Source: Minisyncoccota bacterium
GTDB taxonomy: Bacteria > Patescibacteriota > Minisyncoccia > Phycocordibacterales > UBA9973
Reading direction: 5' to 3'
Length of the DNA: 64,000 bases
Assembly (NCBI GenBank): GCA_041663185.1
Contig: JBAZQY010000002.1
Coordinates: 152,496 to 216,495, forward strand
In this document: one piece after another, positions 6,730 to 56,599 of the stretch
Layout of the letters: every line of letters begins with the position of its first letter
Position numbering within the stretch: position 1 is the first letter of the stretch
Translations under genes and position numbers: made by a program
Notes under the pieces: model-generated
Seen by the model: only the letters and a program-made list of their open reading frames with translations
Told to the model about the DNA's origin: nothing
Databases searched by the model: none

Positions 6730-6730
6730 G

Positions 6731-7147: not shown

Positions 7148-7149
7148 AA

Positions 7150-7178: not shown

Positions 7179-7181
7179 TTT

Positions 7182-7991: not shown

Positions 7992-8095
7992 TGGTATATT
8001 TATTTGGTTATTTTCAATTTTATTTTTATATTAACACAATTTATATAGGATGTCTAAGAGTTATAAATTATCAATTTTTGTTGTATTATGTAAAC

Positions 8096-9469: not shown

Positions 9470-9487
9470 TTGTGATATAATAAAAGA

Positions 9488-10297: not shown

Positions 10298-10348
10298 TAT
10301 AAAATATATTTGTCAAATCTAGACTCTTTAGGGTACAATTGATTCGTA

Positions 10349-10612
10349 ATGAAGAGAGTCATTTTTGATATAATTTTATTTATTTCAGTATTTATTTTTC
10401 CTTGGTGGATAAGTGCTATTTTATTGCTCGGGGGGATTTTTCTTTTTAATAAATTTTACGAATTTATTATAGCCAGTGTAATTATTTTTGCCTTATATTC
10501 TGTTCCTGGGGTCAGGTGGATATCCTCGCCAGTCATTTTTTCACTGTTTATAATAATCTTTTATATTATGGTTGAATATTTTAAAAATAGAATTATCTTA
10601 TATAAAAAATAA
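10349..10612 (+). CDS. small integral membrane protein (87 aa)
   Basis: Two or three predicted TM helices, flush against the downstream PBP gene. Confidence 0.4.
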   Translation: MKRVIFDIILFISVFIFPWWISAILLLGGIFLFNKFYEFIIASVIIFALYSVPGVRWISSPVIFSLFIIIFYIMVEYFKNRIILYKK

Positions 10613-10615
10613 AAA

Positions 10616-12313: not shown

Positions 12314-12332
12314 AATACCCCTTAGATATTTA

Positions 12333-12380
12333 CCCCATAGGCAAGGCCTATGGGGTAGGCCTAGGGGGTATTTGTTTTTA
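12333..12380 (+). terminator. rho-independent terminator downstream of the PBP gene
   Basis: ccccatagg-caagg-cctatgggg hairpin, then a T-run. Confidence 0.6.
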
Positions 12381-12563
12381 AAGAAGATAATTTTGCCCTT
12401 TTCTCTTTACTTTTTTATGAAAAAATGTTAGTATAGACCCATTATTTATCCCGTTATAAATCATAAGTATGAATTACGGGATTTTATATTTAGTGTAGTG
12501 CGGAGGAAAACCTTATAAGTTAATTTTTGTATCGGAATCCAAGGGTTCTATACTAACAATTAT

Positions 12564-13028
12564 ATGGAAGAAACAAACTATATCACAGAAGACAAAAAAC
12601 AAGCACTGAAAGACGAACTTCATAATTTGAAAACTATAAAACGTAAAGAAATACTTGAAGCACTTGAAGCGGCTCGAGCTCTTGGTGATTTATCTGAAAA
12701 TGCTGAGTATCATCAAGCTCGCGAAGATCAAGGTAAAACCGAAGATCGAATAAATCAAATTGAGCACATGCTCAGGTCTGCCATTGTTGTTAAAAAACAT
12801 TCAAGTAATAATGTAGAAATTGGTACAACTGTCAAAGTTAAGAGAGAAGATAGTAAAGAACCGATTACTTACAGTATTGTCGGGGCAGAAGAAGCAGATA
12901 TGGCCAATAATAAAATTTCTAATAAATCTCCACTCGGCGAGGCTCTTTTTGGAAAGCGTAAAGGGGATGTCGTATCTATCAAAACTCCCAAGGGACTAGC
13001 CAAATACACTCTTATTGATATACAATAG
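12564..13028 (+). CDS. greA: transcription elongation factor GreA
   Basis: N-terminal coiled coil with acidic finger (DLSENAEYHQAREDQ) and a C-terminal FKBP-like domain; 154 aa. Confidence 0.9.
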   Translation: MEETNYITEDKKQALKDELHNLKTIKRKEILEALEAARALGDLSENAEYHQAREDQGKTEDRINQIEHMLRSAIVVKKHSSNNVEIGTTVKVKREDSKEPITYSIVGAEEADMANNKISNKSPLGEALFGKRKGDVVSIKTPKGLAKYTLIDIQ

Positions 13029-13034
13029 AGATAT

Positions 13035-14522
13035 ATGGCAGGAATAAAAGAATTACGCGATGAGCGAATAAAGAAAATAGAATTATTAAAGAGTGCAGGG
13101 ATGAACCCATACCCAGCATCTGTTCCGCGGGACTACTCAATTGCCGAAGTTAAAAATTTTTTTGACAAACTTATAACAGAATCGGAAAAGAAAAATATTT
13201 CTATTGCCGGTCGAGTTATTGTCGTCCGAGGGCAAGGAGCAATCTTGTTTGTGGTCTTACAAGATGGAGTAGAAAGATTGCAGGCTGTTTTGAAGAAAGA
13301 TTCTTTAGATGAAGATTTATTTAATTTGTTTGTGAATACAATTGATAATGGAGATTTTATTTCAGTCACTGGCTCATTGTTTATTACTCAAAGAGGGGAG
13401 CAAAGCATTTTGATTAAAAGTTGGCAAATGGCCACCAAAGCGCTACTACCATTGCCCGATAAATGGGCTGGTCTGCAAGATCAAGAAGAAATCTATCGTA
13501 AACGATATCTAGATATTTTAATGGATAAAGAAGTTTACAATCGCTTTGTTCTTCGTTCTAAAATTATTAAATTTATTCGAGAGTTTTTTGATAATAAAAA
13601 CTTTTTGGAAGTAGAAACTCCTATATTGCAAACTCAAGCCGGAGGAGCGATGGCGAAAGTGTTTGAGACATATCATAATGATTATGCGATGCCAATGGTT
13701 TTGCGTATTGCTCTTGAGCTTGACCATAAAATGCTGATGACGGGTGGCTATGAAAGAGTTTATGAAATTGGTAAAAATTTTAGAAATGAAGGTACAGACC
13801 CGACGCACTTACAAGAATTCACGATGATGGAATGGTATGCTGCTTACCAAAGCCTTGAGACAAATATGAAATGGACAGAAGAGCTTATTAAATTAATTGC
13901 GAGTGATTTAATCGGGAAGACATCATTTAAGGTTTATGATAATGAAGGGAATGGAACAGATGTCGAGTTGGGTGGGGAGTGGCCACGAGTGACGTTCGAT
14001 TCTTTACTTAAAAAAGATGCAAATATTGATATTGAAACAATTACGGAAGAGGAAGCACGTAGAGAAGCGATAAAATGGGGAATAAAAGAAGAAGAAGCAG
14101 AGAAACTGGGTCGCGGTAACTTACTCGATAAAATTTACAAGAAATCTTCCAGGATTAAAATTATTAATCCGACTTTTGTGACAGATTTTCCTGGGGATTT
14201 GAAACCTCTGGCTCAACAGAATGAAAATGGAACAGCGAAAGTTTGTCAGTTGATTATTGCTGGAGCAGAAATTACAAATCAGTATGCTGAATTAGTAAAT
14301 CCAAAAATCCAACGCGATCTTCTCATCGCTCAATCAAAGGCCAAAGAAGGGGGAGATGAAGAAGCAATGCAAGTTGATGAAAATTTTTTGACTGCAATGG
14401 AGCATGGCATGCCACCGATGACTGGATTTGGAATGGGCATAGACCGACTGGTAGCAATATTTACAGAACAAAAAAATCTCAGGGATGTTATTTTCTTCCC
14501 AATAATGAAACCAAGAGAATAA
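13035..14522 (+). CDS. lysS: lysine--tRNA ligase (class II)
   Basis: N-terminal OB anticodon-binding domain and class II motifs (FLEVETPIL, FRNEGTD..H..EFTMME, GMGIDRL). Confidence 0.95.
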   Translation: MAGIKELRDERIKKIELLKSAGMNPYPASVPRDYSIAEVKNFFDKLITESEKKNISIAGRVIVVRGQGAILFVVLQDGVERLQAVLKKDSLDEDLFNLFVNTIDNGDFISVTGSLFITQRGEQSILIKSWQMATKALLPLPDKWAGLQDQEEIYRKRYLDILMDKEVYNRFVLRSKIIKFIREFFDNKNFLEVETPILQTQAGGAMAKVFETYHNDYAMPMVLRIALELDHKMLMTGGYERVYEIGKNFRNEGTDPTHLQEFTMMEWYAAYQSLETNMKWTEELIKLIASDLIGKTSFKVYDNEGNGTDVELGGEWPRVTFDSLLKKDANIDIETITEEEARREAIKWGIKEEEAEKLGRGNLLDKIYKKSSRIKIINPTFVTDFPGDLKPLAQQNENGTAKVCQLIIAGAEITNQYAELVNPKIQRDLLIAQSKAKEGGDEEAMQVDENFLTAMEHGMPPMTGFGMGIDRLVAIFTEQKNLRDVIFFPIMKPRE

Positions 14523-14534
14523 AAAATATTAAAA

Positions 14535-14565
14535 AGACCCAGGTAATTTACCGGGGTCTTTTTTG
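14535..14565 (+). terminator. rho-independent terminator after lysS
   Basis: agacccagg-taattta-ccggggtct followed by tttttt. Confidence 0.6.
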
Positions 14566-14579
14566 ATAGAGATAATCTA

Positions 14580-14765
14580 TCAGAATCCTGATATCTGTCC
14601 TTTGGGGACAAATGGCATATCAATCTCTCCCTCTTTGCAAATAGAGGTGGTTGATTCTTTTTGTGCACTTTGAAGGGCATAAATTGTTTTGGAAAACGGC
14701 CAGAAGCCTATTTTCTTTGCAACAATAAAATATACTCCAGGCGGGTAAATGACATTTTTTTTCAT
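14580..14765 (-). CDS. small hypothetical ORF (61 aa), possibly not a real gene
   Basis: The ORF lies in the gap between lysS and mraZ, and nothing else supports it. Confidence 0.2.
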   Translation of the reverse strand: MKKNVIYPPGVYFIVAKKIGFWPFSKTIYALQSAQKESTTSICKEGEIDMPFVPKGQISGF

Positions 14766-14844
14766 GGCCTTAAATTTACTATAAATTATATAACAAAATA
14801 AGCTTTTTGTCTATTTTTAGAACCCTTAGTTATCCACAGATTTA

Positions 14845-14915
14845 AAGTGGGGAGGGTTGTTTGTTTTGTGGGATAAAGTGGTGTATAATTAAAGCAAGTG
14901 GGATACAGTGGGAAA
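14845..14915 (+). promoter_or_regulatory. mraZ promoter with a GTGGG direct-repeat array (candidate MraZ operator)
   Basis: GTGGG(G/A) or GTGGT repeats start at 14847, 14868, 14878, 14898 and 14908, spaced 10 or about 20-21 bp apart. A TATAAT box at 14884-14889 and a TTGTTT -35-like element at 14861-14866 (17-bp spacer) overlap the repeats. Confidence 0.55.
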
Positions 14916-14949
14916 AGATAAAATAGTAAATATTCCACTTTTTAATTTT

Positions 14950-15384
14950 ATGTTAATTGGCGAATACACTCACACACTAGACGATAAAAATAGAATGTCT
15001 CTACCCGTAAAATTCCGCAAGGAGATGGGGAAAAGTGTTGTCGTTGCCCCAGGGCTAGACAACTGTCTTTCAATTTTTACAACGCACGAGTGGCAAAAAA
15101 TTTCAGGAAAATTATCTGACTCATCAATGCTCGCTAGTGACAATAGAAGTTTCTCGAGATTTATGTTTGGTCAAGCTGTCGTCGTCGATGTCGATACAAA
15201 TGGCCGAATACTAATCCCGGAAAATTTGAAAAATCGTTCAGGCTTATCTAGTAAGGTTGTTGTTATTGGTGTGCAGAACCGCGCCGAAATCTGGAATGAG
15301 AAAGCATGGAATGATTACAAGAAAGTAGTGGAGAAGCAGGCAGATGCCCTGGCAGATAAATTAGGGCAAATAGGTGTTCTTTAA
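14950..15384 (+). CDS. mraZ: transcriptional regulator MraZ
   Basis: MLIGEYTHTLDDKNRMSLPVKFR matches the MraZ N-terminus with its duplicated DxxxR motif. The ATG at 14950 is preferred over the track start at 14908. Confidence 0.9.
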   Translation: MLIGEYTHTLDDKNRMSLPVKFRKEMGKSVVVAPGLDNCLSIFTTHEWQKISGKLSDSSMLASDNRSFSRFMFGQAVVVDVDTNGRILIPENLKNRSGLSSKVVVIGVQNRAEIWNEKAWNDYKKVVEKQADALADKLGQIGVL

Positions 15385-15385
15385 A

Positions 15386-16282
15386 ATGAAACATATTTCT
15401 GTATTACTAAGTGAATCAATTGATGGGCTAGAAATAAAGCCAGGTGAAATTATTGTTGATGGAACACTCGGAGGTGGTGGACATACACTTGAAATAATCC
15501 GTCGTCTTGGAAACAAAGTGAAAATAATTTGCCTCGACTTAGACACTGACGCAATCAGAAGAGCAAAGAAATTAATAGACAAAACATTGGGTGATGTAGT
15601 CTACCAGACAGCTGGGTTCCAAGATATTGAGCAAGTGCTTGATGGTTTGAAGATAAAAAATGTCGATAAGATTCTACTTGATTTGGGGCTAAGTTCATTT
15701 CAATTGGAAGAAGGAGATAGGGGATTCACATTTTCAAAAGATGAACCACTTCTAATGACAATGAAGAAAAATCCAAACTCAAATGATTTAACTGCTTATG
15801 AAATTGTGAATACTTGGGGAGAAGAATCGTTGGCGGATATAATTTATGGTTTTGGAGAAGAAAAATATTCAAGAAAAATTGCCAGGGCGATAGTAGAAGC
15901 TCGCGAAGAAAAGGAGATAAAGACAACTTTTGATTTGAATGAAATTATTGAAAAAACTGTTGGCAAATTCTATCGAGGTAAAAAAATTCATCCATCAACT
16001 AGGACCTTCCAAGCATTAAGAATTGCGACTAATAGTGAATTAATTAATTTGGAAAAAGTAATACAAAAAGGTTTCGAAAGATTATCAATCAGGGGAAGAA
16101 TGGCCATTATTAGTTTTCATAGTTTAGAAGATCGCATTGTCAAAAAAGCATTTTTAAAATTAAAACAAGAAGGTTGTGCAAATATTATTACAAAAAAACC
16201 AATAGTGCCGAGTGATGAAGAAATTAAATTAAATCCTCGTTCACGTAGTGCTAAATTAAGATTAATAGAAAAAACAAAGTAA
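15386..16282 (+). CDS. rsmH: 16S rRNA (cytosine1402-N4)-methyltransferase RsmH (MraW)
   Basis: The sequence reads HISVLLSESIDGL..DGTLGGGGH, with a DLG motif (LLDLGLSS). It immediately follows mraZ. Confidence 0.9.
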   Translation: MKHISVLLSESIDGLEIKPGEIIVDGTLGGGGHTLEIIRRLGNKVKIICLDLDTDAIRRAKKLIDKTLGDVVYQTAGFQDIEQVLDGLKIKNVDKILLDLGLSSFQLEEGDRGFTFSKDEPLLMTMKKNPNSNDLTAYEIVNTWGEESLADIIYGFGEEKYSRKIARAIVEAREEKEIKTTFDLNEIIEKTVGKFYRGKKIHPSTRTFQALRIATNSELINLEKVIQKGFERLSIRGRMAIISFHSLEDRIVKKAFLKLKQEGCANIITKKPIVPSDEEIKLNPRSRSAKLRLIEKTK

Positions 16283-16286
16283 ATAT

Positions 16287-16610
16287 ATGACAAAAGCAAA
16301 AGCAATCACAAAAGATATCACAGAAAATATTAAAACACAAAAAATGTTACTTCGAGTGTTGATTTGTAGTTCAATCGTTTTGTGCGCTGTCTATATTTAT
16401 CTTATTGGTTCTATAACTTTCAATATTATTGCCCGCAAATCATTAGAAAATACAGCAACTAACCTAGCCAATAGTGTGAATCAACTTGAATTGACCTATT
16501 TGAATAATGTGAAGGGAATAGATAAAGAATATGCTTTTTCAAAAGGATTTGTAGATGTTCATCAAAATATTTTTGCAACAAGAGATATTAATCATGTCGC
16601 TATTCGCTAA
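16287..16610 (+). CDS. FtsL-like small bitopic division protein
   Basis: 107 aa with a single TM helix and then a coiled coil, in the conserved position between rsmH and ftsI. Confidence 0.5.
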   Translation: MTKAKAITKDITENIKTQKMLLRVLICSSIVLCAVYIYLIGSITFNIIARKSLENTATNLANSVNQLELTYLNNVKGIDKEYAFSKGFVDVHQNIFATRDINHVAIR

Positions 16611-18316
16611 TGAAATTATCATCGTTCCAAAAGAGAATAAGGGTTTTGATTGGTTTTGTTCTTTTAGTGTCTATCATTCTCTTGGGTAGACTTTTTTTTG
16701 TTCAGGTTATTCATAAAAACTTTTATATTTTGCGTGCCGATAAGCAATATGTCACTCCGGCGGGTAATATATTTGATCGTGGTTCAATATATTTTTCTAA
16801 AAAAGATGGTTCACTTGTGACTGCTGGGACAGTAACTTCAGGATTTAAGCTGACAATGGTTCCAAAGAATATTGTTAATGCTTCGGATGTTTATACACAA
16901 TTAAGTCCATATTTACAAATGGATGAAGATACTTTTTTAACAAAAGTTTCCAAAATTGATGATCCATACGAAGAAATTGCAACAGGTTTAAATAAAGAAC
17001 AAGTTACAGAAATTGAAAATCTCAAAATTAAAGGGCTTTCTATTTTTAAAGATAATTGGCGATTTTACCCTGGAGGAAATCTTGCTTCGCATACGCTTGG
17101 TTTCTTAGCTTATAAAAATGATTCTCTGGTTGGTCAGTATGGATTAGAACGTTTTTATAATAGTACACTTTCTAATAGAGAAGATGAAGACTATGTGAAT
17201 TTTTTTGCTGAAGTTTTTTCAAATATTAGAGATACAATTTCAGATACAAATAGAGGTGATGTTATTACAACGATTGAACCGTCCACGCAATCTACCCTAG
17301 AAGGTGAGCTTGCGTCAGCTTTAGAGAAATGGAAAGCTGATCAAGCCGGTGGAATAATTATTAATCCACAAACTGGAGAGATATATGCTATGGCAGGATT
17401 ACCAGATTTTGATTTAAATAATTTTAGAAAAGTAGAGGATGTCGGCGTTTATCGTAATCCTTTAGTTGAAAATGTTTTTGAATTTGGGTCAGTTATTAAA
17501 CCATTGGTGATGATGGGGGCGATTGACGCGGGAGTTGTTACTCCAGAGACAACTTATTTTGATAATGGATTTATCGTTGTAGATAAAAAGACAATAAATA
17601 ACTTTGATAAAAAAGGGCGTGGACTTGTGACGATGCAAGATGTCCTTAATCAATCCTTAAACACTGGGATGGTTTTTGTTGAAAGTAAACTCGGGCATGA
17701 CAAATTTCGCGCTTATTTAAAATCGTATGGAATTGGAGAAAAAACGGGGATTGATCTTCCCAATGAAACTTCTGGTCTTATAAAAAATATTGATAGTCCT
17801 CGAAATATTGAATATGCCAATGCCGCTTTTGGTCAAGGGATAGCCTTGACTCCGATTGAAGCAGCCAGAGCGTTTGCGATTATTGCTAATGGGGGCAAAC
17901 TCGTGACACCACACCTAGTTAAAGAAATAAAATATGACAATGGACTTTCCAAAAATCTTGATTATCCTTTCATTAAAGAAAATATAATAAAAAAAGAATC
18001 ATCTGATACTGTGACTAGAATGCTCATTAAAGTTTTTGAATCTTATGATAACGGAGTGCATAAATTTAATAATCACAGCGTTGCCACAAAAACAGGTACG
18101 GCACAAGTAGCAAAGGAAGACGGGAAGGGGTATTATACAGATCGTCATATGCACTCATTTTTTGGATATTTTCCAGCTTATGAACCCAAATTTTTAGTTT
18201 TTCTTTTTCTTAAAAATCCTAAAGAAGTCAAATATGCTTCCCAAACATTAATTCCACCTTTTATTAATATCACTAAATTTATTATAAATTATTATAATGT
18301 TCCACCCGATAGATAG
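16610..18316 (+). CDS. ftsI: peptidoglycan D,D-transpeptidase FtsI-like (class B PBP)
   Basis: TM anchor plus SxxK (SVIKPL), SxN (SLNTGM) and KTG (KTGTAQ) motifs. The TAATG overlap with the upstream gene suggests translational coupling. Confidence 0.85.
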   Translation: MKLSSFQKRIRVLIGFVLLVSIILLGRLFFVQVIHKNFYILRADKQYVTPAGNIFDRGSIYFSKKDGSLVTAGTVTSGFKLTMVPKNIVNASDVYTQLSPYLQMDEDTFLTKVSKIDDPYEEIATGLNKEQVTEIENLKIKGLSIFKDNWRFYPGGNLASHTLGFLAYKNDSLVGQYGLERFYNSTLSNREDEDYVNFFAEVFSNIRDTISDTNRGDVITTIEPSTQSTLEGELASALEKWKADQAGGIIINPQTGEIYAMAGLPDFDLNNFRKVEDVGVYRNPLVENVFEFGSVIKPLVMMGAIDAGVVTPETTYFDNGFIVVDKKTINNFDKKGRGLVTMQDVLNQSLNTGMVFVESKLGHDKFRAYLKSYGIGEKTGIDLPNETSGLIKNIDSPRNIEYANAAFGQGIALTPIEAARAFAIIANGGKLVTPHLVKEIKYDNGLSKNLDYPFIKENIIKKESSDTVTRMLIKVFESYDNGVHKFNNHSVATKTGTAQVAKEDGKGYYTDRHMHSFFGYFPAYEPKFLVFLFLKNPKEVKYASQTLIPPFINITKFIINYYNVPPDR

Positions 18317-18318
18317 TT

Positions 18319-19623
18319 ATGACCAAACAAATATTTAAAAAAATTATAATATTCATTATTACTTGGCAAGCCAAATTGGTGCTAGCCAAATATCATCCCA
18401 AAATTATTGCGATTACTGGATCAGTCGGTAAAACATCGACTAAGGATGCTCTTTTTACTGTTCTATCAAAATTTAAAATAGTTAGAAAAAGTGAAAAAAG
18501 TTTCAATAGTGAGATAGGTTTACCATTGACTATTTTAGGGCTACCGAATGGTTGGGATGATCCTTTTGTTTGGCTTGTAAATATTCTTCATGGTTTTGCT
18601 CTAATATTATTTAGGAAGCCTTATCCAGAATATTTGATTCTGGAAGTGGGAGTAGGGAAGCCGGGAGATATTAAAAAGAATGTTGTCCCTTGGTTGAAAA
18701 CTGATGTAGTGATTGTTACTCGTTTCCCTGATAGACCAGTACATGTTGAGTTTTTTGAATCAGCCGAGAAAATTATAGAAGAAAAAAGTGCTCTAGTATC
18801 TACTTTAAAGAAAAATGGAGTGCTAATATTAAATCACGATGATGAAAAAGTTTACGCTCTCCACCAGAAATCAAATTGCAAAACTGTCTCTTACGGGATG
18901 CACGAAAACTCGACTTACCATTCAATGTATCCAACTTATTCTTATAATACAAAACATAATCATAAAGTTCCCAATGGAATTAATTTTAAATTAGAATATG
19001 AAGGGAATACTTTCCCAGTAATTTTACCTAATGTTTTAGGAATGCATAATGTTGGTCAGGCTCTTGCAGCTGTGGCTTGTGCCCATGAACTTGGTTGTGA
19101 TTTACTCGAATCAATTCGGGCGATCAGTGAGTATTCTACTCCTCCTGGTCGGTTATCACTTATTGAAGGGATGAAAGATTCAATTATTATTGATGACACT
19201 TACAATTCATCTCCAGTGGCGATGGAGTCAGCGATAGAGGTATTGAGAGACATTGAAGGCAAAAGAAGAATTGCTGTACTTGGAGATATGCTTGAATTGG
19301 GTAAATTTACCGAAGAAGAACATCGTCTTGTTGGAGGGAAAATATTTGGTGTCGCTGACATTTTAATTACTGTTGGGCCAAGAGCGAAATCTATAGTAGA
19401 AGGGGCTAAAGAGAGTGGTTTTATAAAGAAAAATATTTATAGTTTTGATTCAGTAAAAACGACTGGTGAATTTTTAGAAAAAATGATAGAAGAGGGGGAT
19501 ATTATCCTAATCAAAGGTTCCCAAGGAGTACGCCTAGAACGTGCTGTAGCGGCTATTATGGAACATAAAGAGATGAAAGGTAAACTTCTATGTCGCCAAG
19601 ATAAAGAATGGCAAAATCGCTAA
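18319..19623 (+). CDS. murF: UDP-N-acetylmuramoyl-tripeptide--D-alanyl-D-alanine ligase MurF
   Basis: Mur ligase P-loop ITGSVGKTSTKD, in the mraZ-rsmH-ftsL-ftsI-murF order. Confidence 0.9.
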   Translation: MTKQIFKKIIIFIITWQAKLVLAKYHPKIIAITGSVGKTSTKDALFTVLSKFKIVRKSEKSFNSEIGLPLTILGLPNGWDDPFVWLVNILHGFALILFRKPYPEYLILEVGVGKPGDIKKNVVPWLKTDVVIVTRFPDRPVHVEFFESAEKIIEEKSALVSTLKKNGVLILNHDDEKVYALHQKSNCKTVSYGMHENSTYHSMYPTYSYNTKHNHKVPNGINFKLEYEGNTFPVILPNVLGMHNVGQALAAVACAHELGCDLLESIRAISEYSTPPGRLSLIEGMKDSIIIDDTYNSSPVAMESAIEVLRDIEGKRRIAVLGDMLELGKFTEEEHRLVGGKIFGVADILITVGPRAKSIVEGAKESGFIKKNIYSFDSVKTTGEFLEKMIEEGDIILIKGSQGVRLERAVAAIMEHKEMKGKLLCRQDKEWQNR

Positions 19624-22086: not shown

Positions 22087-22611
22087 TTAAAGTGAACTTA
22101 CAAACCACCCAAACAAACTGAATTGTTCTTTTTGTTCAAGGATAAACTTCTCGACCTTACTTTGTTCATCGTTCAAAAAATTTATTTGAGTATCAATTTG
22201 ATTTTTACTTATTTCATCTTTTGCTTCCATTTTTATAATTCCCAGAGAATAATTTAAATTTTTTATCTGAACTAATTGAAAATTGAGTACCTTTAAATTA
22301 TTACCAATTAAAAGTTTCTTTATCTTACTCCCATTTTTTATATTAAATATTGCCTTATTTATTTCTCCTGTAGAGAAATTTTGTTTCTCAGTAATGTTTT
22401 CTAATTTTGTTTTTTCTGTTTCAATTAAAATATCGCGATCTTTGATAAGTTTTGAATCATTAAAATTTTTTACTAAATCAGGAGAGAGGGAATTGCTCTC
22501 TAAAATGTTTAACTCATTATTTATTTCAAATTCAAAAGCGTCAACGTTAGCAAAAGATATTAACATAAATATTACCAACAGCCCTTTTTTAATTTTATTT
22601 ACTATGTTCAT
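22087..22611 (-). CDS. secreted hypothetical protein
   Basis: Signal-peptide-like N-terminus (MNIVNKIKKGLLVIFMLISFANVDA) and a Lys/Asn-rich body. Confidence 0.55.
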   Translation of the reverse strand: MNIVNKIKKGLLVIFMLISFANVDAFEFEINNELNILESNSLSPDLVKNFNDSKLIKDRDILIETEKTKLENITEKQNFSTGEINKAIFNIKNGSKIKKLLIGNNLKVLNFQLVQIKNLNYSLGIIKMEAKDEISKNQIDTQINFLNDEQSKVEKFILEQKEQFSLFGWFVSSL

Positions 22612-22693
22612 ATATAAATTTATTTTCGTTTTCTAAACAACTCTCTATATATAGATGACGTTAGACAAAGTAAATATATTACAACTATTTCTT

Positions 22694-23287
22694 TCAAGTT
22701 TTATTTTTATGATCTTTTTTTAATCCATCAATTTCTTTTTTTAATTTCAAAATTTGAACTTCAAGTTTTTTAGTTTGTTTTGTGAGATTAGCTTCTACAT
22801 AATTTGCATGACTGGCAAGTGTTTCAGCCACAAGCATTATTTCGGTGACATCTTCCATCGCTAGAAGAATGATTGGAGGAAATGTTTCAAGTGTTGTGTC
22901 TTCTTTAAAATGAATTTGACGAGCATTTAATATCATCACCTTGCGTCCAATAATAGGGAACTCATGAACAACCTCAAAACCCTTAAAAAATGTATTTTTA
23001 GGTAAAATATCTTCTAAAAGTTTTTTTAACGCGGGAATATTCCATTGTCCATCTCCCAATTCATATACAAGTTTGTTTTGAGTTTCTTGTAATTCAACTT
23101 GAAATGTTCGGAAAAATGATTCATTGGCTGTCATCACTCTTAAATCTTTATTTAGAATTAACACTGGCTCTCGCACGACGTCAACTACCGTTTTTATATA
23201 TGTCCAACTTTTTGACCACAATTCTTTTATCATTTTTGTCTCATTTTGGCTAATAATTTTACTAGAATCTTTTTTATTTTTTTTCAT
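22694..23287 (-). CDS. PAS domain protein with a C-terminal coiled coil
   Basis: Central PAS-like fold (VLILNKDLRVMTANESFFRTF..ELGDGQW) and a heptad-rich C-terminus. Confidence 0.5.
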   Translation of the reverse strand: MKKNKKDSSKIISQNETKMIKELWSKSWTYIKTVVDVVREPVLILNKDLRVMTANESFFRTFQVELQETQNKLVYELGDGQWNIPALKKLLEDILPKNTFFKGFEVVHEFPIIGRKVMILNARQIHFKEDTTLETFPPIILLAMEDVTEIMLVAETLASHANYVEANLTKQTKKLEVQILKLKKEIDGLKKDHKNKT

Positions 23288-23517
23288 ACCCCTTATGCCG
23301 TAATAAGGATAAAATTATTACAGTTCGCTATTAGTTATCTAAAGTGCTATACTTTAGTATCGAGATTATATTTCTCGGCAAAACAATTATTGTAATGCCA
23401 ATGCCACAAGACCCTACAACTCACTCTCTCAAATAACCATACAGAAATCAATATATTCTAATTACTACATTGTGATTGTAATAATTATGTAATTAAAAGT
23501 CGTGAAAAACGGCATAT

Positions 23518-24045
23518 ATGTATATGTCTCAAATAAAAGAGAAGAAAAATAAAGAAAATAAAGATATATTAAATCAAGCCCACCAAAATTTTTCAAAAGG
23601 GCTTAATTCTTATGCTTATTTCAAGATTCACAATCGTACTATTAGTACAGATTTAGTCCAAGATACTTTCATCAAGACATGGAGTTATTTAGTTAGGGGT
23701 GGGAAAATTGATATCATGAAGGCTTTTCTTTATCATATTTTAAATAATCTTATTGTTGATCAATATCGCAAACACAAAACTCTTTCACTTGATGATCTTA
23801 TGGAAAAAGGGTTTGAGCCCAAAGCAAGTGAATTTGATCCCAATTTTGATATTTTAGATGGCAAAACAGCGCAATTGATGATTAAATGTCTTCCCGATAA
23901 ATATAGGAAAGTAATGCTTATGCGATACGTCCAAGAGTTAACCCTTAAAGAAATTTCTTTAATCACCGGAAAATCAAAAAATAATATAGCAGTCCAAATA
24001 CATCGAGGACTTGAAAAATTAAAATTATTGTATCGTCGCGCGTAA
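23518..24045 (+). CDS. ECF-type RNA polymerase sigma-70 family factor
   Basis: Region 2 (LVQDTFIKTWSYL..DQYRKHK) and region 4 HTH (LTLKEISLITGKSKNNIAVQIHRGLEKLK). Confidence 0.8.
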   Translation: MYMSQIKEKKNKENKDILNQAHQNFSKGLNSYAYFKIHNRTISTDLVQDTFIKTWSYLVRGGKIDIMKAFLYHILNNLIVDQYRKHKTLSLDDLMEKGFEPKASEFDPNFDILDGKTAQLMIKCLPDKYRKVMLMRYVQELTLKEISLITGKSKNNIAVQIHRGLEKLKLLYRRA

Positions 24046-24059
24046 ATGTCCTTTCTGTC

Positions 24060-24091
24060 ATATATCTCCAATACAGAGATATATTTTTTTA
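24060..24091 (+). terminator. rho-independent terminator after the sigma factor gene
   Basis: atatatctc-caataca-gagatatat followed by ttttttt. Confidence 0.6.
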
Positions 24092-24219
24092 TCTATTCGT
24101 ATCCTAAACTGTAATACCTTCAGGGCTGGCTCGGCATCATAATCAGTGAATGATGTTGGATAAGTAATTTAGTCGATTATCAATCCGAAATAGTAATTAT
24201 TAATGTTTATAAAAATAAT

Positions 24220-26145
24220 ATGAAAAAGTATTTTTTAATTAGTGGAATTCTGGTGTTTGTTTTAATTGGTTTGTTTACTCTAAATAGTAATGTCTTTGCT
24301 GTATCTGTGGAACCACAAGCTATAGTTACTACTTCAGATACAGAGGCAGAACCCCCAACAGCAACTATCATAGCCACAAAGATTGTTTGTGATAATGAAA
24401 AAGATTTACCAGATTGGGGGAGTGGTGGAGCTGATATAACAGAAAATACTGCCATGAGTTTTGTTTTAGAAAATAATAATTGTCAGATAGTCCCTTGGAC
24501 ATTTGAATGGTCTGTTGATTGGAATACTAACCCCGGAGATAATCTTTTATCTGGTGGAGAAGGGTGGAATTCTTTTGAGGGCAAAGCAGAGATATCAACA
24601 GGAAAAGGATTAAATATATTAGTTCGTGAACGAATGAAAGATGAATATATCCCATTTACAGGACCAAACGATAAGGATGCTATTTCAGCAGAATTTTATT
24701 GTAATACAGATGTTTTAGCTTATGATAATTATGAATGGATAAATTCCATAGCTCCGGATGAAGTGTATTACTGTGTTGGATTTAATGTTTTAAAAGAAAT
24801 TTCACCGGAACCAATAAATGGTGGATGGAGTGCATGGAGTGAAAAAAATAATACCTGTGGATATTCAGGAACCCAGACAAGAACATGTACTAATCCCTCT
24901 CCAGCCAATGGTGGGGCAGATTGTAGTTTGTTAGACGGTGGAAATTTGACTCAGGCATACACAAATGATGCTTGTGGAATAACCCAACAGTGTAATATTA
25001 AAAGTGACAATACCAATGTTCTTGGAAACAATAGAGGTAGTGCAGTTCCAACATGGAAATCTACCAATTGGGTTCAATCAATCCCAACATCGAGTGCTTT
25101 ATGGATATGGAATGCATATCATGTTACGGCAGAGAGTGCAAAAAATGGCGAGAATGAGACCTTTACTAAAACATTTAACGTTGGAGAAAATATTACCTCG
25201 GCAAGTATTAAATTAGCTGTTGATAATGGATATAGATTAGAAATAAATGGGACAGAGGTGATAAATAGAATGGCTGATCAATATAAATATACTAATTTTC
25301 AATCTCTGACAACAATAGATATAAAAAGTTATCTAGTTACAGGAACAAATACTATAAAATTTTACGTCAGAAATTATTCATCATCATCTAATAGCCCAAC
25401 AGTTAATCCAGCCGGACTCATGTATGATCTTACTTTAGTGAGTGATACTTGTTCAGTAAATAATGAAGCGGTTGTTGTAAATGGCGGATGGAGTGCTTGG
25501 AGTACGAAAGATAATTCTTGTGGAATAACAGGAACGGAAACTCGTACTTGTACAAATCCAAGTCCTCTAAATGGAGGGTTGGATTGTAGTTTACTTGATG
25601 GAGGAAATTCCTCACGAGTGTACACAAATGATGCATGTGGTAGTACACCGATTGATATGTGTCTAAATATTGAAGGAGTTCAAACAACAATTCCAAATGG
25701 AATGGAAGTAAATAATGATAAAGAATGTACAGAGATAGAATCTAGGGACAGCGGTTCAACATATGGTTCTAGATCTACTAAAGTAGCAATAGCTAATGCT
25801 AATGAAGGAAGAGTCCTCGGAGCTAGTACTTCTTGTGGACAATATTTGTTTACTTATATCAAATATGGAACTACTAATGATAAAAGTGAAGTAATTAAAT
25901 TGCAACAATTTCTAAATGAGTATTTGACTTTGAATCTTCCAGTTGATGGATACTATGGATTAGAAACATATAATGCCGTCAAAACATTTCAACTCAAACA
26001 TTCTCCGGAAGTCTTAAGACCATGGGTGGGTGTTAGTTTGAAGAATGAGTCAAAAGGTACTGGTTGGATGTATAAAACAACTCAAAGATGGATAAACATG
26101 ATAAAGTGCCCAGAGTTAAATTTACCAATGCCAATTTTACCATAA
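24220..26145 (+). CDS. large secreted protein with two thrombospondin type-1 (TSP1)-like repeats and a C-terminal PG_binding_1-like domain
   Basis: Signal peptide. Two copies of [15 protein letters not shown]..[25 protein letters not shown]...TNDACG (WSxWS plus six Cys). The C-terminal [25 protein letters not shown] matches the LxxxG..DGxFGxxTxxAVxxFQ peptidoglycan-binding pattern. Confidence 0.8.
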
Positions 26146-29428: not shown

Positions 29429-31006
29429 TTACTCCATTGCTTTCATCATCTGTTTAGCCACAGCTTCTACTACTGGAACACTCACAGAGTTTCCAAATTG
29501 TTTATACAATGCAGAATCTGCTAAAGGAGGTAATTTAAAACTATTTGGAAATCCTTGTATTCTTGAACACTCAAGGGGTGTTAATTTTCTTATTCCTTTC
29601 TTATCTTTAATTATCGGAACATTGTGTCCACCCATTCCCATGTTAGCTGTAAGTGTAGGGCAAACTCCACTTTTATTCTCTCTGACATATTGTCTTCTCC
29701 ATTGATATACTTTTCCTTCTTCTTTTACATCTTTTTTTAGTTTTTCAAAAAGAGGCTTTCCGTTGTAATAGTATTTCTCAGAAACATTTTTCTCTAATAA
29801 ATCAGTAATTTTTACATTAAGTTTAATAGGCTCAGGAAATGTAAATTTATCTGAATACTCTTTATTTTTAAACCCAACGATATATATACGTTCACGATTT
29901 TGAGGGACATTACCATATTCCATTGTATTTAATACTTTTGCTTTAACATGATATCCTAAATCTTTTAGAGTTTCTTCAATTATTCTAAATGTGTTGCCTT
30001 CGTCATGGCTTTTTAGATTTTTTACATTTTCAAGTAAAAATCCTTCTGGATTTTTTGCTTTAATAATTTTGGCTATATCAAAGAATAAATTACCTCTATT
30101 TTTTGGATCATCAAATCCTTTACGATATCCTGCAATAGAAAAAGCCTGACAAGGGAAACCTCCTAATATAAAATCAAATTCTGGTAAATCATTAATCCCT
30201 ATTTTTCTTATATCTTCAACTATCAATTTTGAATCTTTAAAATTAAGATCATATGTTTGCTTACAGGGTGCATCAAAATCATTTGCAAAAACTGTTTTAA
30301 ATCCTGCATTTTCAAATCCCATTCTTATGCCACCTATTCCAGCAAATAGATCTATTGTTTTAAATCCGTGTTTTGTTTTCTTTTGAGGTTTTACTTCCTG
30401 TTCTATTTTTGGATTACTTATAATCTGAACAACTACACCACGAACTTCAACTTCTTTTCTGTAAAAAGGAAGCATTGATTGATTCCTAGGTTCTAGTCTA
30501 AATCTATTTTTATCTCGATATAGTTTTTTTAATGTTGCTTCATTGTCGTCAATAATAGCAACTACGGTTTGTCCGTTTTCAGCCACTGATTGCTTTTTTA
30601 TTATTACAATATCCCCATTAAATATTCCTTCTTCTATCATACTGTCTCCTTGGACTCTTAGTGCATAATAATCTTTAGGACTTTTAATATTTGAGTTAAT
30701 TATTGAAATGGCATCTTGTTTATCTTCAATCGCTTCTATTGGATAACCTGCTGCGATAGTTCCCATAACTGGTATTTCAATGATTTGAAAATTTTCTTTA
30801 TTAGTTTCTATACTTCTTGATAAATTATCAGACTTTGAAATGTAGCCTTTTTCTTTTAAAGCGTTTACATGTTCATGTACAGTAGAAATTGCTTTTAATT
30901 TAAATTTCTTTCGTATCTCGTCATTAGTAGGAGATATACCATTTTCATTGATATATGAGTTAATAAAATCCAGTATTAATTTTTGTTTTTTTGTTAGTGT
31001 TTGCAT
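29429..31006 (-). CDS. LexA repressor (HTH + S24 peptidase) fused to a DNA (cytosine-5)-methyltransferase
   Basis: N-terminus: MQTLTKKQKLILDFI..ISPTNDEIRKKF..ISTVHEHVNALKEKGYI (LexA DNA-binding domain), Ala-Gly site (IAAGYP), S24 catalytic Ser (VQGDSM) and Lys (EATLKKLYR). C-terminus: m5C-MTase motifs I (DLFAGIGGIRMGF), IV (GGFPCQAFS), VI (ENVKNL), VIII (QNRERIYIVG), IX (RKLTPLECSRIQGFP) and X (QFGNSV). The track ORF extends 21 codons upstream to 31069. The ATG at 31004-31006 matches the canonical LexA start. Confidence 0.85.
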   Translation of the reverse strand: MQTLTKKQKLILDFINSYINENGISPTNDEIRKKFKLKAISTVHEHVNALKEKGYISKSDNLSRSIETNKENFQIIEIPVMGTIAAGYPIEAIEDKQDAISIINSNIKSPKDYYALRVQGDSMIEEGIFNGDIVIIKKQSVAENGQTVVAIIDDNEATLKKLYRDKNRFRLEPRNQSMLPFYRKEVEVRGVVVQIISNPKIEQEVKPQKKTKHGFKTIDLFAGIGGIRMGFENAGFKTVFANDFDAPCKQTYDLNFKDSKLIVEDIRKIGINDLPEFDFILGGFPCQAFSIAGYRKGFDDPKNRGNLFFDIAKIIKAKNPEGFLLENVKNLKSHDEGNTFRIIEETLKDLGYHVKAKVLNTMEYGNVPQNRERIYIVGFKNKEYSDKFTFPEPIKLNVKITDLLEKNVSEKYYYNGKPLFEKLKKDVKEEGKVYQWRRQYVRENKSGVCPTLTANMGMGGHNVPIIKDKKGIRKLTPLECSRIQGFPNSFKLPPLADSALYKQFGNSVSVPVVEAVAKQMMKAME

Positions 31007-31137
31007 ATTGCTAAATAATATATGTTTTGCTACAATTCTATTATAACCGAATATATACCGAAAGTGCAAGCAGTTACCTATAGATATTATAAATAACTGT
31101 TACAAGTCGAAATTTATTAAAAAATAAAACGATTTTT

Positions 31138-53266: not shown

Positions 53267-56200
53267 TTATCGATTCAAAACTTCACGAGTTAATGGCCCA
53301 ACAATTCCATCATCATCTAATCCATTTGCCAGCTGGAATTTCATAACCGCAGCTTTTGTTTTTGGTCCAAAGATTCCATCGGCAAGACCGCAATTATAAC
53401 CAGCAGTATTTAGGAATTTCTGAAGTTCTATGACTTCATTACCCTTTGAGCCAAGCTTCAAGGGTAAAGTGAAAATGAATTTTTCAGCACCGAGAACTTG
53501 TCCAAGAATTGGAGTAATAGTAGGAATTGGTCTTATGTAACTTCCAGATGATCCTCCACCACTGCTTGATGTCGATTGACATGCATCGTTTGTAATTATT
53601 CTAGTAGAATTTCCTCCATCAATTGCACTACAAGGAATTCCCCCGTTGGTTGGTTCTGTACAAATACGAGTTTGGGTATATATTAATCCACATTGTTCGT
53701 TTACGGGGCTCCACGCACTCCAAACTCCATCTATTGGTAATGGAGTATCGTCGACTACCTCACAATTAGTTCCATTTGTATTTGCACTACCAGGAGTTAT
53801 ACAAACATAGGCAAAATCAGCCGAGTTATTATTTGTATCTTGTCCATCTGGATATCTTGAAATACTATGCGGAGTTGAATCAGTAGGAGCTAAATCAGCT
53901 TGAGCGCCTGTGCCTTCAGTATAACCTGCCACACTTCCTTCATAACTTACTGTATCAATTATAGTATTAGTTGAATCAAATATAGCAACCGCATCTGCTC
54001 CAGCTCCTCCATTTTGGATTAAATCAGTATTAGGTGATATATCAAGATCACAATTTATAACTGTAGCTGTATTAGAACAAATTATATAATAATCACCAGA
54101 ATTTAAATTAACACTAGGTAAATTTATAGTTTGATAAAGCACAATCCCAGTCCCATTAATCAAACGCACTTCATAATTATCAAGATTAATTACTCCCTCT
54201 CCGATATTTTTTAATTCGACAAATTCAGCTATATCAGCACTTGGTTGATCATAATCAATTTCATTTATTACTAATTCAGTTGAAGTTGGAGGAACAATTT
54301 CTGTTTCTGTCACATTCACAGTTCGTGTGATTGGCGAAGCGACATTTCCTGCACTATCTGTGGCTGTGTAAGTAATTGTGTAAGAGCCAGCTGTATTTGT
54401 ATCCACAACACCAGAAGCATTAACGACGATTGAGCTATCAACAATATCAGAAGCAGTTGCACCAGGATCAATGAAAGTATCCCCAACTATTAATTCCATT
54501 GGATTTACTCCAAGAAGTGTAATGACTGGAGCAGTTGTATCAACAACTATTACTGATCTTTCTGCTTGATTAGCCGATGTGCCCCAAGAATCCGTTACAT
54601 TGTAGAATATTTTATGAAGTCCAAGCACAAGTGTGTCTATTGGTAATCCAGTCGTAACAATAAGACTTGAGATATCAGCACCGATTTTATCTTCCGCTGT
54701 TGCTCCCTCATCCATATATATAGAACCAGCCTCAAGATCTAATACATTATAACCAGTTCTGTAAATTATCGGCTTATCTTTGTCAACAGCATTAACTTCG
54801 ATTGTTTTTTCTGAAGAATTTTCTTGATTATCAGTTGCTTTATATGTGACGTGATAAGTGCCAAGAGCACCAGTATCTACATTATTATCTGTTACCTCAC
54901 AAGGAAGTGGTGATCCATCAACTAAGTCGGAAGCAGCACAAGTTGGTTCAGAAAATTCTTCATTTATCCAAGTATCAATTGAATCTGAACTTGCAATATT
55001 TATAATTGGACCAGTCGTATCCTCGATTGTTACAAGAGAAGTTACTTCTTCTGAAATATTTCCAGAATGATCAGTCGCTTTCCAGTTCACAATAGTTTCC
55101 CCAAGAGGAAAAGTTGTCGGAGTATAAGAAATTATTGGATTTTCGTCAGCAATATCTGTGGCAACTGCTTGAATAAGAGTCGGATTTGTTAATGGTCCAG
55201 TTGCTTCAAAAATTTGATCAACTGGAGCCGTAATGGTTGGAAGAGTGGTATCAGTAATTATTACCGCAAAACTATTTGTGGCAGTATTTCCAGCTGTATC
55301 TGTTGCACTACATTCAACATCATTAGATCCCACCGGAAAAGTTGAACCAGATTCCGGAGTACAATTTACTGTTGGAGTAGCTGGATTTGTGTCTGTCGCA
55401 GTTGCTGTAAAGATTGCAACAGCACCATTGTGGCTAGTAGCCTCTTCGGTAATTGTAGTTGGCAAAGTTAATACTGGAGCAGTATTATCAACATCTATAG
55501 AAACAGATGCAGATAATGCATGATTTCCTGCTTCATCATATGCGTCAACCCAAATATTATGAACTCCATCCGTCAAAGAAGTTGTGTCAAAAGAAATTGA
55601 ATATGGAGAATTTGTATCTTCGCCAATTTTTACTCCAACAACACTTGAATGCCAAAATTCTACTTTTGAAATATCGGCGGTTGTATCACTAGCGTTAGCC
55701 TCAATTGTGATTGTTCCATTGACTAAACTACCAGAAGAAGGAGAAGTGACAGAAGAAGTTGGGGCAGTTTGATCTATACCACCAATAGCATTAGACATTT
55801 TATATGTAGTATTTGAAGCAGAATCAATTGCTCGATAACAAACTTTTTTACCATTATCTGATTCAGATGTGAATGTTTGACTTGTATAAGAAATAAAAGT
55901 TAAAGATGAATCACAGACAGAACCAGTTGTGTTACTCATTTTTAGAGTTCCCTCATTAGCACTTGCGGTGATAGTTTTACTTTGAGCAGGAGTGGTCCCA
56001 GGTTCATTAATAGTAATTTCTGGAGCAGTAGTGTCTGGAGTGTAATAAACGGTAACAGAAATATTATCAACTGAAGCAATTCTTGTTCCACCGGCAGTCC
56101 GAGTGATAGATAAACCAACACCAAAATTTGATGAGTTAATATCACTAGCTGTCCATGTTGTCCCCCATTTCTCAGTTTCACTTCCATAAGTCACGATAGT

Positions 56201-56599
56201 ATCGGTTGTTGGCCAAGCTTCGGAAGTCTTGGCTTTATTACTACTTGTTGCCGAAAGACCCTTAAACACTTTGACATATTTATCACTGACAACAGAGGGA
56301 GAACACCCAGCAACTTTACAGGCTTGTTTTTTTTCAATATTTACTTTGATTCCATTGATTGTTGAACCAGCTGGAATAGAAAATCCAAAGTTACTTGCTC
56401 TTAGATAATCTGAAAAATAAGTTGCATCTTCCATTTTGAGTGTTGCGTAGGTATTATCTGAAGTTGTTGCATTGTTTGGATTTGTCCAAACAATGCTTGA
56501 ACCAGTAAATGAAGTGTCAGCTACCACCGTAGGATTACCAGAGACTTCTATAACTGAAGAAGTCGCCATTAAACTATTTGTAAATGTTAGACCAAACAA
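53267..56599 (-). CDS. giant secreted adhesin-like protein (1110 aa) with Ig-like repeats, a lamin-tail domain, a TSP1-like repeat and a PG_binding_1 domain
   Basis: Signal peptide. Thr/Ser-rich repeated beta domains. LTD motif LVINEIDYDQPSADIAEFVELKNIG. TSP1-like DGVWSAWSPVNEQCG..TQTRICTEP..GGIPCSAIDGGN..TNDAC. The C-terminus ELQKFLNTAGYNCGLADGIFGPKTKAAVMKFQ is a peptidoglycan-binding pattern. Confidence 0.85.
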   Translation of the reverse strand: MFGLTFTNSLMATSSVIEVSGNPTVVADTSFTGSSIVWTNPNNATTSDNTYATLKMEDATYFSDYLRASNFGFSIPAGSTINGIKVNIEKKQACKVAGCSPSVVSDKYVKVFKGLSATSSNKAKTSEAWPTTDTIVTYGSETEKWGTTWTASDINSSNFGVGLSITRTAGGTRIASVDNISVTVYYTPDTTAPEITINEPGTTPAQSKTITASANEGTLKMSNTTGSVCDSSLTFISYTSQTFTSESDNGKKVCYRAIDSASNTTYKMSNAIGGIDQTAPTSSVTSPSSGSLVNGTITIEANASDTTADISKVEFWHSSVVGVKIGEDTNSPYSISFDTTSLTDGVHNIWVDAYDEAGNHALSASVSIDVDNTAPVLTLPTTITEEATSHNGAVAIFTATATDTNPATPTVNCTPESGSTFPVGSNDVECSATDTAGNTATNSFAVIITDTTLPTITAPVDQIFEATGPLTNPTLIQAVATDIADENPIISYTPTTFPLGETIVNWKATDHSGNISEEVTSLVTIEDTTGPIINIASSDSIDTWINEEFSEPTCAASDLVDGSPLPCEVTDNNVDTGALGTYHVTYKATDNQENSSEKTIEVNAVDKDKPIIYRTGYNVLDLEAGSIYMDEGATAEDKIGADISSLIVTTGLPIDTLVLGLHKIFYNVTDSWGTSANQAERSVIVVDTTAPVITLLGVNPMELIVGDTFIDPGATASDIVDSSIVVNASGVVDTNTAGSYTITYTATDSAGNVASPITRTVNVTETEIVPPTSTELVINEIDYDQPSADIAEFVELKNIGEGVINLDNYEVRLINGTGIVLYQTINLPSVNLNSGDYYIICSNTATVINCDLDISPNTDLIQNGGAGADAVAIFDSTNTIIDTVSYEGSVAGYTEGTGAQADLAPTDSTPHSISRYPDGQDTNNNSADFAYVCITPGSANTNGTNCEVVDDTPLPIDGVWSAWSPVNEQCGLIYTQTRICTEPTNGGIPCSAIDGGNSTRIITNDACQSTSSSGGGSSGSYIRPIPTITPILGQVLGAEKFIFTLPLKLGSKGNEVIELQKFLNTAGYNCGLADGIFGPKTKAAVMKFQLANGLDDDGIVGPLTREVLNR

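Follow-up and report, generated by a model that had tools for sequence, protein, structure and literature searches.

The stretch of DNA analysed here (hereafter the window: 64,000 nucleotides of contig JBAZQY010000002.1, from a Minisyncoccota bacterium) holds, at 24220..26145 on the forward strand, a gene for a 641-amino acid (aa) modular protein, predicted to be secreted, which combines repeats of the thrombospondin type-1 class (TSP1 repeats, or TSRs) with a putative wall-binding domain. The protein is identical to NCBI MFA6251538.1, 'MAG: peptidoglycan-binding protein [Candidatus Paceibacterota bacterium]' (MAG, metagenome-assembled genome), and sits on a 273-kb contig. Two other genes matter for what follows: that of an extracytoplasmic function (ECF)-type sigma factor, adjacent on the upstream side (23518..24045, +), and that of a 1110-aa surface protein (53267..56599, -) carrying Big_7, three HYR, three Bact_surface_Ig-like, a lamin-tail domain (LTD), a TSR and PG_binding_1. 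An initial annotation, made from the letters alone, had reported both long open reading frames (ORFs), of 641 and 1110 aa, and both are present as claimed. TSP_1 and PG_binding_1 were already on record for MFA6251538.1 through automatic Pfam annotation; what is new is the reduced form of the TSR in a prokaryote, the architecture of the domains, a stalk domain that had no name before and an ECF regulon that can be defined.

From the N-terminus, the modules of the 641-aa protein are a signal peptide, a CnaB/pilin-like domain (domain A), a TSP1 repeat, a CBM67-like domain (domain B), a second TSP1 repeat, a Cys linker and a PG_binding_1-type domain; domains A and B had both escaped the initial annotation. 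The predicted signal peptide (aa 1-27, 24220..24300, +) was recognised by inspection of the sequence (MKK, a hydrophobic core, then NVFA|VS), and the AlphaFold (AF2) model starts with a helix at residues 4-20 followed by a disordered linker. The short Cys linker motif (aa 477-505, 25648..25734, +, ending in NDKEC) recurs in homologs, as BLAST segments covering query residues 477-503 in several matches, and is modelled with a predicted local distance difference test score (pLDDT) of 84-86. The PG_binding_1-type domain and its extension (aa 538-641, 25831..26142, +, pLDDT >90, with C539 and C630 conserved) reach 33.7 bits against PF01471 in the whole protein and 37.0 bits when scored alone, for a Pfam cut-off of 23 bits, and the C-terminal domain of the 1110-aa protein reaches 66 bits. 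The C-terminal domains thus do match PG-binding profiles, as had been proposed, and that of the 641-aa protein would bind murein. The window also contains a dcw-type cluster of murein synthesis genes (1404-19623; four Mur ligase genes, two for class-B penicillin-binding proteins (PBPs), and MraW); about 4.6 kb lie between its end and the sigma/TSR locus downstream. The cluster implies that the organism makes peptidoglycan to which a PG_binding_1 domain could attach. The 18 cysteines of the protein all fall in conserved within-module pairs, which fits the expectation for an exported protein, and a BLAST comparison with the 120 best homologs showed its modules to be shuffled among Paceibacterota proteins.

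TSP1 repeat 1 spans aa 198-254 (24811..24981, +), repeat 2 aa 418-475 (25471..25644, +) and repeat 3 aa 955-1009 of the 1110-aa protein (53573..53737, -). A six-frame regular-expression scan of the whole window found the pattern WSAWS...C...RxC only at aa 203 and 424 of the 641-aa protein and at aa 960 of the 1110-aa protein, and a hidden Markov model search of all window ORFs with the unit profile returned the same three copies and no others. The count of two copies plus one given in the initial annotation is therefore right, and so is its WSxWS motif, which reads WSAWS in three out of three copies. Other details of that annotation needed correction: the unit, described as 54 aa long, is 52 aa long as it was spelled there; the sequence attributed to both copies is not that of copy 2, which reads GTETRTC; and the units have four cysteines each instead of six (C213, C223, C235 and C252 in repeat 1; C434, C444, C456 and C473 in repeat 2; C970, C980, C990 and C1007 in repeat 3). 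C258 and C411 were considered as the missing TSR cysteines and rejected, as they are the conserved first and last cysteines of domain B, between the repeats. Repeats 1 and 2 are 72% identical; repeat 3 shares 55-60% identity with them (59% with repeat 1) and finds both in BLASTP against the 641-aa protein (E = 4e-19 and 1e-18). DNA identity among the three copies is just 58-68%, so that they must be old duplicates and not an assembly artefact.

Several comparisons place the unit among the TSRs: (i), Pfam TSP_1 (PF00090; gathering cut-off 21.6 bits) matches the whole 641-aa protein at 25.3 bits and repeat 1 alone at 26.6 bits; (ii), phmmer against PDB sequences returned the TSRs of UNC5B (3.7e-8), UNC5D, thrombospondin-1 (1lsl) and C8 beta; (iii), a profile built from 25 bacterial units of this type matched solved TSRs at far lower E-values, namely UNC5B at 1.5e-17 and thrombospondin-1 (1lsl, 3r6b) at about 7e-16, with the structures of ADAMTS13, properdin and C6-C8 at 1e-7 to 1e-5; and (iv), the alignments are collinear over the whole repeat, through CG, TRxC, NPxPxxGGxxC and the terminal Cys. 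Repeats 2 and 3 are counted as TSP1 because they are 55-72% identical to repeat 1 and have weaker PDB matches of their own (UNC5A over aa 418-475 for repeat 2). The TSP1 identity proposed initially is thus upheld by a match to TSP_1 itself, and not to some other bacterial beta-sandwich family with a coincidental WSxWS.

The repeats are nevertheless not canonical. Aligned to 1lsl, the unit lacks a three-residue stretch that includes the third Trp and Cys1 and has a Tyr in place of Cys5 (YTNDAC vs CNTQAC); its four cysteines align with the canonical C2, C3, C4 and C6, and of the residues of the tryptophan ladder it has two Trp, where three are usual, and a single Arg (QTRTC) in place of RxR. The disulfides of thrombospondin-1 are reportedly C1-C5, C2-C6 and C3-C4, in which case exactly one disulfide has been lost as a pair, a coherent loss. 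With four cysteines and not the six of TSP_1, the unit is a variant and not a canonical member of the family. In the AF2 full-length model, repeat 1 (pLDDT 82-87) has an irregular first segment followed by strands at 216-220 and 244-248. Judged by sequence comparison, the repeats are true homologs of eukaryotic TSRs in a reduced form, with two Trp, one Arg and four Cys.

The unit shares with animal TSRs (thrombospondin-1 TSR2/3, UNC5, properdin, ADAMTS13, complement C6-C9) its length of about 55 aa, the collinear order of WSxW, CG, xTRxC, NPxPxxGGxxC and terminal Cys, and, in the model, an irregular first strand followed by two regular ones. It differs from them in lacking the third Trp, Cys1 and the RxR ladder (one Arg being left), in the Tyr that stands for Cys5, in the loss of the O-fucosylation site CxxS/TCG, and in its partners, which are wall-binding, CnaB-like and CBM modules where the animal repeats are joined to matrix domains. 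Reduced-cysteine TSR variants exist in apicomplexans. The apicomplexan TSR adhesins (TRAP, CSP) are a further parallel, being microbial surface proteins in which TSRs stand beside another ligand-binding domain, presumably for cell attachment; apicomplexan proteins use surface TSRs to attach to another cell (PMC3417536). Those adhesins, in contrast, are type I membrane proteins on a gliding motor, whereas the bacterial protein would be anchored by a predicted murein-binding domain.

Domain A (aa 44-195, 24349..24804, +) is modelled confidently as a CnaB/pilin-like beta-sandwich (pLDDT 88, predicted template modelling score 0.84) and has four conserved cysteines. It belongs to no Pfam family: none of 22 members gave a Pfam match, and its profile found nothing among PDB sequences at E <= 10. 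The resemblance to CnaB-type stalk domains is thus one of fold, with no match at the level of the sequence family. The family is sharply bounded, since a profile search covering 1.84 billion cluster representatives returned 1,060 proteins at E <= 1e-3, 855 of them below 1e-30; these often carry 2-4 copies of the domain and reach lengths of up to 3,321 aa. Three residues, K54, E137 and N189, on the first, central and last strand, are nearly invariant in 265 copies, as are the four cysteines. Such a Lys/Glu/Asn layout is that of an isopeptide triad on our hypothesis, and domain A is a candidate for a new, previously unnamed isopeptide-type stalk family. It differs from the CnaB stalks of Gram-positive pilins and MSCRAMM adhesins (RrgB, SpaA, SpaD, SdrD, Spy0128) in having no detectable sequence similarity to them and four conserved cysteines, the isopeptide bond itself being hypothetical; moreover, the 641-aa protein has a PG_binding_1 anchor and no LPXTG/sortase signal. 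At two of the loci that encode distant homologs, L002 (2975-3967) and L003 (6754-7764), the gene for a domain A/PG-binding protein is directly followed by one for a CAP/SCP protein (PF00188), a secreted module known best from eukaryotes.

Domain B (aa 256-412, 24985..25455, +) is bracketed by the conserved C258 and C411 and was recognised as a jelly roll of the CBM67-like lectin type by profile, Foldseek and weak Pfam matches. Its profile matches chains named 'Lectin' (6t1d, 6t0q, 6kbj) at about 1e-12, of which we take 6t1d and 6kbj to be the CBM67-like lectin of Pleurotus ostreatus. An even better match (E = 3.8e-13) covers residues 135-231 of the Streptomyces avermitilis rhamnosidase 3w5m. 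When the model of the whole 641-aa protein was submitted to Foldseek, rhamnosidases came top, followed by GH2 sugar-binding domains and CBM6/35; as a single sequence, domain B reached 17.1 bits against Bac_rhamnosid_N, for a cut-off of 25, with PA14 and GH2_N also weak. Residues 135-231 of 3w5m are, as Fujimoto et al. 2013 reportedly found, its CBM67 module. Domain B differs from that module of SaRha78A and from the 'Lectin' chains in not being attached to a glycosidase, in its closure by the C258-C411 pair and in an invariant NPAG motif. The CBM67 of the S. avermitilis rhamnosidase is a calcium-dependent rhamnose-binding module (PMC4690510), and the ligands of CBM67-like lectins include Gal, GalNAc, GlcNAc and L-Rha (PMC11186620). 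Domain B is thus probably a CBM67-like sugar-binding jelly roll, predicted to be calcium-dependent. Given that CnaB-like and CBM67-like domains are both present, the predicted lectin domain, and not the TSRs, is most likely the ligand-binding site of the protein.

The sigma factor, whose likely true start is ATG 23524, consists of Sigma70_r2 and Sigma70_r4_2 only and matches the NCBIfam model TIGR02937 (sigma70-ECF) at 61.7 bits, for a cut-off of 42.9, which agrees with its initial assignment as an ECF sigma factor. A promoter-like motif, TGTAAT-N16-CGGCAT, occurs exactly three times in the 64 kb, always at this locus: at 23488..23515 (+), 2-8 nt before the sigma start; at 24110..24137 (+), 82 nt upstream of ATG 24220; and at 23295..23322 (-), 7 nt before the ATG of a divergent PAS-like gene (22694..23287, -), the PAS matches of whose product are weak. 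A variant, TGTAAT-N17-CGTCAT (22655..22683, -), lies about 43 nt before the ATG of a gene for a 174-aa protein (22087..22611, -) with a hydrophobic N-terminus and no Pfam match. A generic sigma-70 promoter scan did no better than shuffles (20 sites vs 16.8). An ortholog locus, L001, encodes a sigma factor of 73% identity and, two genes downstream of it, P0003, which is homologous to the 641-aa protein; at L001 the motif is found at the same three relative positions with diverged spacers. Relatives of the sigma factor, most of them 54-80% identical, were found at 69 further metagenome loci, and 287 kb of sigma loci contain 41 sites of the relaxed motif against 0.23 (maximum 3) in shuffles. The motif stands before the sigma gene at the equivalent site in L001, L084, L123, L134 and L147, which implies autoregulation; the arrangement with the PAS-like gene occurs in 11 listed loci (L116 and L117 look redundant); and in L084 the motif follows the sigma gene, with an ORF for a protein with a PG-binding-type C-terminal domain 210 nt downstream. 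It also precedes genes for an 82-aa membrane protein and for several signal-peptide proteins, some with a PG-binding-type C-terminal domain.

Taken together, these sites support the view that the motif set marks an autoregulated ECF regulon made up of envelope proteins, to which the TSR protein would belong here, and the proposal of the initial annotation that the sigma factor controls 24220-26145 gains sequence support from the conserved motif that both genes share. Across loci the motif lies 7-14 nt from the ATG of the sigma gene and mostly 6-9 nt from that of the PAS-like gene, which suggests that these mRNAs are leaderless or nearly so. The PAS-like protein, soluble, about 190-200 aa long and divergently transcribed in these loci, is a candidate sigma partner. 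Autoregulated ECF sigma factors of the SigW, SigM and SigX type share with this system the r2 + r4 architecture, a motif before their own gene and before those of envelope proteins, and a -10 element of the CGT/CGG type at a fixed 16-nt spacing. They differ from it in the -35 element, usually of the AAC type and here TGTAAT; in addition, no membrane anti-sigma gene is adjacent here, the conserved divergent gene for a soluble PAS-like protein being found instead, and the sigma and PAS-like genes are apparently leaderless. The 641-aa protein was itself considered as an anti-sigma factor and rejected, since four residues precede its hydrophobic segment and leave no cytoplasmic anti-sigma domain. 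In its general form, TGTAAT-N16/17-CG(G/T)CAT (22655-24137 in the window; L001 and L084-L152 elsewhere), the motif delineates what looks like a small ECF regulon across many Paceibacterota-type metagenome contigs.

On balance, we favour the view that the 641-aa protein is a secreted, disulfide-rich, murein-tethered modular lectin/adhesin of a Paceibacterota bacterium, one of the candidate phyla radiation (CPR), under the control of the adjacent ECF sigma factor. In such a scheme, the protein would leave the cell through Sec and stay attached, non-covalently, to the producer's own murein by its C-terminal domain; the CnaB-like domain, together with both TSRs (rigid and stapled by disulfides), would form a stalk or spacer, possibly serving as secondary adhesive modules, and would present the lectin domain to rhamnose- or galactose-type glycans of a partner cell or surface. 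The neighbouring sigma factor would turn on its expression along with that of other envelope proteins. The protein, with its predicted lectin and predicted murein binder, is a concrete candidate for an adhesin or attachment factor of Paceibacterota, and the defined motif and sigma factor predict a small envelope regulon across many related genomes.

Several observations weigh against this scheme. Scored alone, repeat 2 reaches 15.3 bits against PF00090, under the cut-off, and repeat 3 reaches 20.1 bits against TSP1_spondin, also under the cut-off, with UNC5B at E = 2e-4; the AF2 model of repeat 2 has a pLDDT of only 58-71, and a three-stranded TSR fold of the unit is suggested by sequence-to-structure alignments and by the strand pattern of the model. 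In domain B, the only such residues seen to align with 3w5m are an invariant DN (D335/N336) and an invariant Asn, opposite D179, N180 and N228, which presumably act in calcium and rhamnose binding. At the C-terminus, the PF01471 match covers profile positions 3-45 (43 of 57) and is followed by a divergent, conserved extension. As to regulation, the sigma gene is not adjacent at the distant homolog loci L002 and L003, so that ECF control would be lineage-specific. In the window, moreover, an AT-rich hairpin with a T-run (24060..24090, +; ATATATCTC-CAATACA-GAGATATAT-TTTTTT by inspection) follows the sigma stop and separates the sigma gene from the 24110..24137 promoter. This is possibly a weak terminator, uncalled by the terminator scan because the scan demands G+C-rich stems. 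Finally, the leader of the 641-aa protein gene contains a conserved hairpin or palindrome (24156..24186, +; core GTAATTTAGTCGATTA at 24164-24179). The palindrome, with core GTAATTTAGTCRATTA, recurs at L001 2502-2533, L002 503-533 and L003 ~3925-3955, and is kept even at loci that lack a neighbouring sigma gene. L001 and L002 have the identical core and L003 a related one, and from locus to locus both sides of the outer stem differ. The palindrome may act as an operator or as an RNA structure in the leader, and points to a further layer of control.

A first alternative, which we consider unlikely, keeps the modules and reverses the orientation of the protein: an uncleaved N-terminal signal-anchor would hold it in the producer, and the PG_binding_1-type and lectin domains would grip the wall of a partner, bridging the two cells. 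The hydrophobic core is indeed long (~18 residues, modelled as a helix at 4-20), yet the c-region NVFA|VS suits signal peptidase I. CPR bacteria are generally held to be episymbionts, the PG-binding domain is of a divergent subtype, with its conserved extension and disulfide, that is common to many Paceibacterota proteins, and small secreted proteins that consist of hardly more than a PG-binding domain recur in the ECF regulon. Against bridging, the producer's own set of murein synthesis genes in the window makes self-binding the simpler assumption, and the hosts of Paceibacterota may have no accessible murein.

A second alternative, to which we give still less credence, is that the protein serves envelope maintenance and is not an adhesin: as a member of an ECF stress regulon it would bind wall polysaccharide of its own cell (e.g. 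rhamnose-containing) as well as murein, the TSRs being mere spacers. The regulon has features of this kind, as the motif precedes small PG-binding proteins and a membrane protein of about 82 aa that by eye may be of the YeaQ/GlsB stress type, and some 4.6 kb separate the gene from the dcw-type Mur ligase/PBP cluster upstream of it; family-profile searches also found no catalytic or host-directed domain in the 641-aa protein. However, very large multi-domain proteins (up to 3,321 aa) contain domain A and the TSRs alongside modules that are typical of adhesins (Ig-like, HYR, PKD and DUF11), and the paralog encoded at 53267-56599 is built like a classic adhesin. The idea that the unit is no TSR at all, being instead a Cys-rich bacterial module that is unrelated and has WSxWS by chance, or that the gene is a eukaryotic contaminant, can be effectively excluded: four cysteines per unit and two out of three copies under the Pfam cut-off when scored alone speak for it, but they are outweighed by profile-to-PDB E-values down to 1e-17 with whole-repeat collinear alignment, by prokaryotic bins in which the four-Cys form grades into the canonical six-Cys one, and by the in-frame fusion to bacterial domains, host codon composition and 273-kb bacterial contig. 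Eukaryotic contamination and recent transfer were likewise rejected on base composition (window G+C of 34%; G+C at third codon positions of 20%, near the 22-31% of three housekeeping genes) and on the bacterial surroundings of the gene.

Scanning one genome per prokaryotic species with a pattern and tblastn combined gave 216 stretches that encode relatives of the unit. By record titles, the best 80 of these 216, all from MAGs, comprise 51 loci from Patescibacteria lineages, 10 from proteobacterial MAGs, 6 unclassified, 4 each from Planctomycetales and Bdellovibrionales, 2 from DPANN archaea and 1 each from Omnitrophota, Thermodesulfovibrionia and Fimivivens; as all are MAGs, binning errors may account for some of the labels. 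The four-Cys form dominates the ~25 best loci (L004-L032), nearly all from Paceibacteria/Nomurabacteria-type or unclassified bins; below these it is sporadic, and at the other loci the repeat has the same core and all six canonical cysteines. Identity to the unit reaches ~50-55% in the SCO-spondin and coadhesin proteins of invertebrates, and prokaryotic and invertebrate repeats have TRTCTNPxPANGGxxC in common. That TSRs are common in uncultivated prokaryotes, with a coherent two-disulfide form, bears on the origin of the domain and on the minimum of its fold.

In one review, TSP1 figures as an animal domain that was passed on to apicomplexans (PMC3417536), and the repeat is commonly described as an adhesion module of these two groups. 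A full-text literature search returned no paper on type-1 repeats in CPR or other prokaryotes, which is weak evidence as most subscription journals lay outside its scope; what it did return was type-3 repeats in Omnitrophota giant genes, eukaryotic work and papers on unrelated subjects. It is tempting, if speculative and in our opinion improbable, to propose that TSRs are not an animal or apicomplexan invention but a widespread module with which uncultivated, partner-dependent prokaryotes attach to other cells (bins of Patescibacteria above all, and others labelled Bdellovibrionales, Planctomycetales, Rickettsiales, Omnitrophota and DPANN archaea). The four-Cys form would then be its minimal, two-disulfide version, displayed here under the switch of a dedicated ECF sigma factor and its PAS-like partner, and the very high similarity of prokaryotic and invertebrate repeats would be due to transfer from one domain of life to another, perhaps out of bacteria into early animals.

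The 1110-aa protein would be a second wall-bound adhesin with the same C-terminal plan of LTD, TSR and PG_binding_1. Its lamin-tail domain (aa 772-887, 53939..54286, -) reaches 52.8 bits against PF00932 for a cut-off of 34.3 and, with the HYR and Bact_surface_Ig-like matches in Pfam, bears out the LTD and Ig-like repeats of the initial annotation; its PG_binding_1 (aa 1053-1108, 53276..53443, -) is canonical, covering profile positions 2-57 of 57. No ECF motif was found before the gene at <=1 mismatch, and the sole loose match lies inside it. The true start of the protein is uncertain, as the listed TTG cuts into a hydrophobic, signal-peptide-like stretch (56560-56660, -; ..ISFVTVLVLFGLTFTNSLMA|TS); an out-of-frame ATG (MHFIMSIF..) lies just 5' of it beside a T5 run, and either an unusual start codon or an assembly frameshift could account for this. 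The product of the adjoining gene (52645-53181, -) belongs to 8xMP, a family of octameric membrane proteins (PF24838, E = 2e-38).

Two further observations concern the window at large. An Rfam scan detected one tRNA and nothing else. A single 546-aa ORF (29429-31069, -) encodes an unusual fusion of a LexA DNA-binding domain, a Peptidase_S24 self-cleavage domain and a complete C-5 cytosine DNA methylase.

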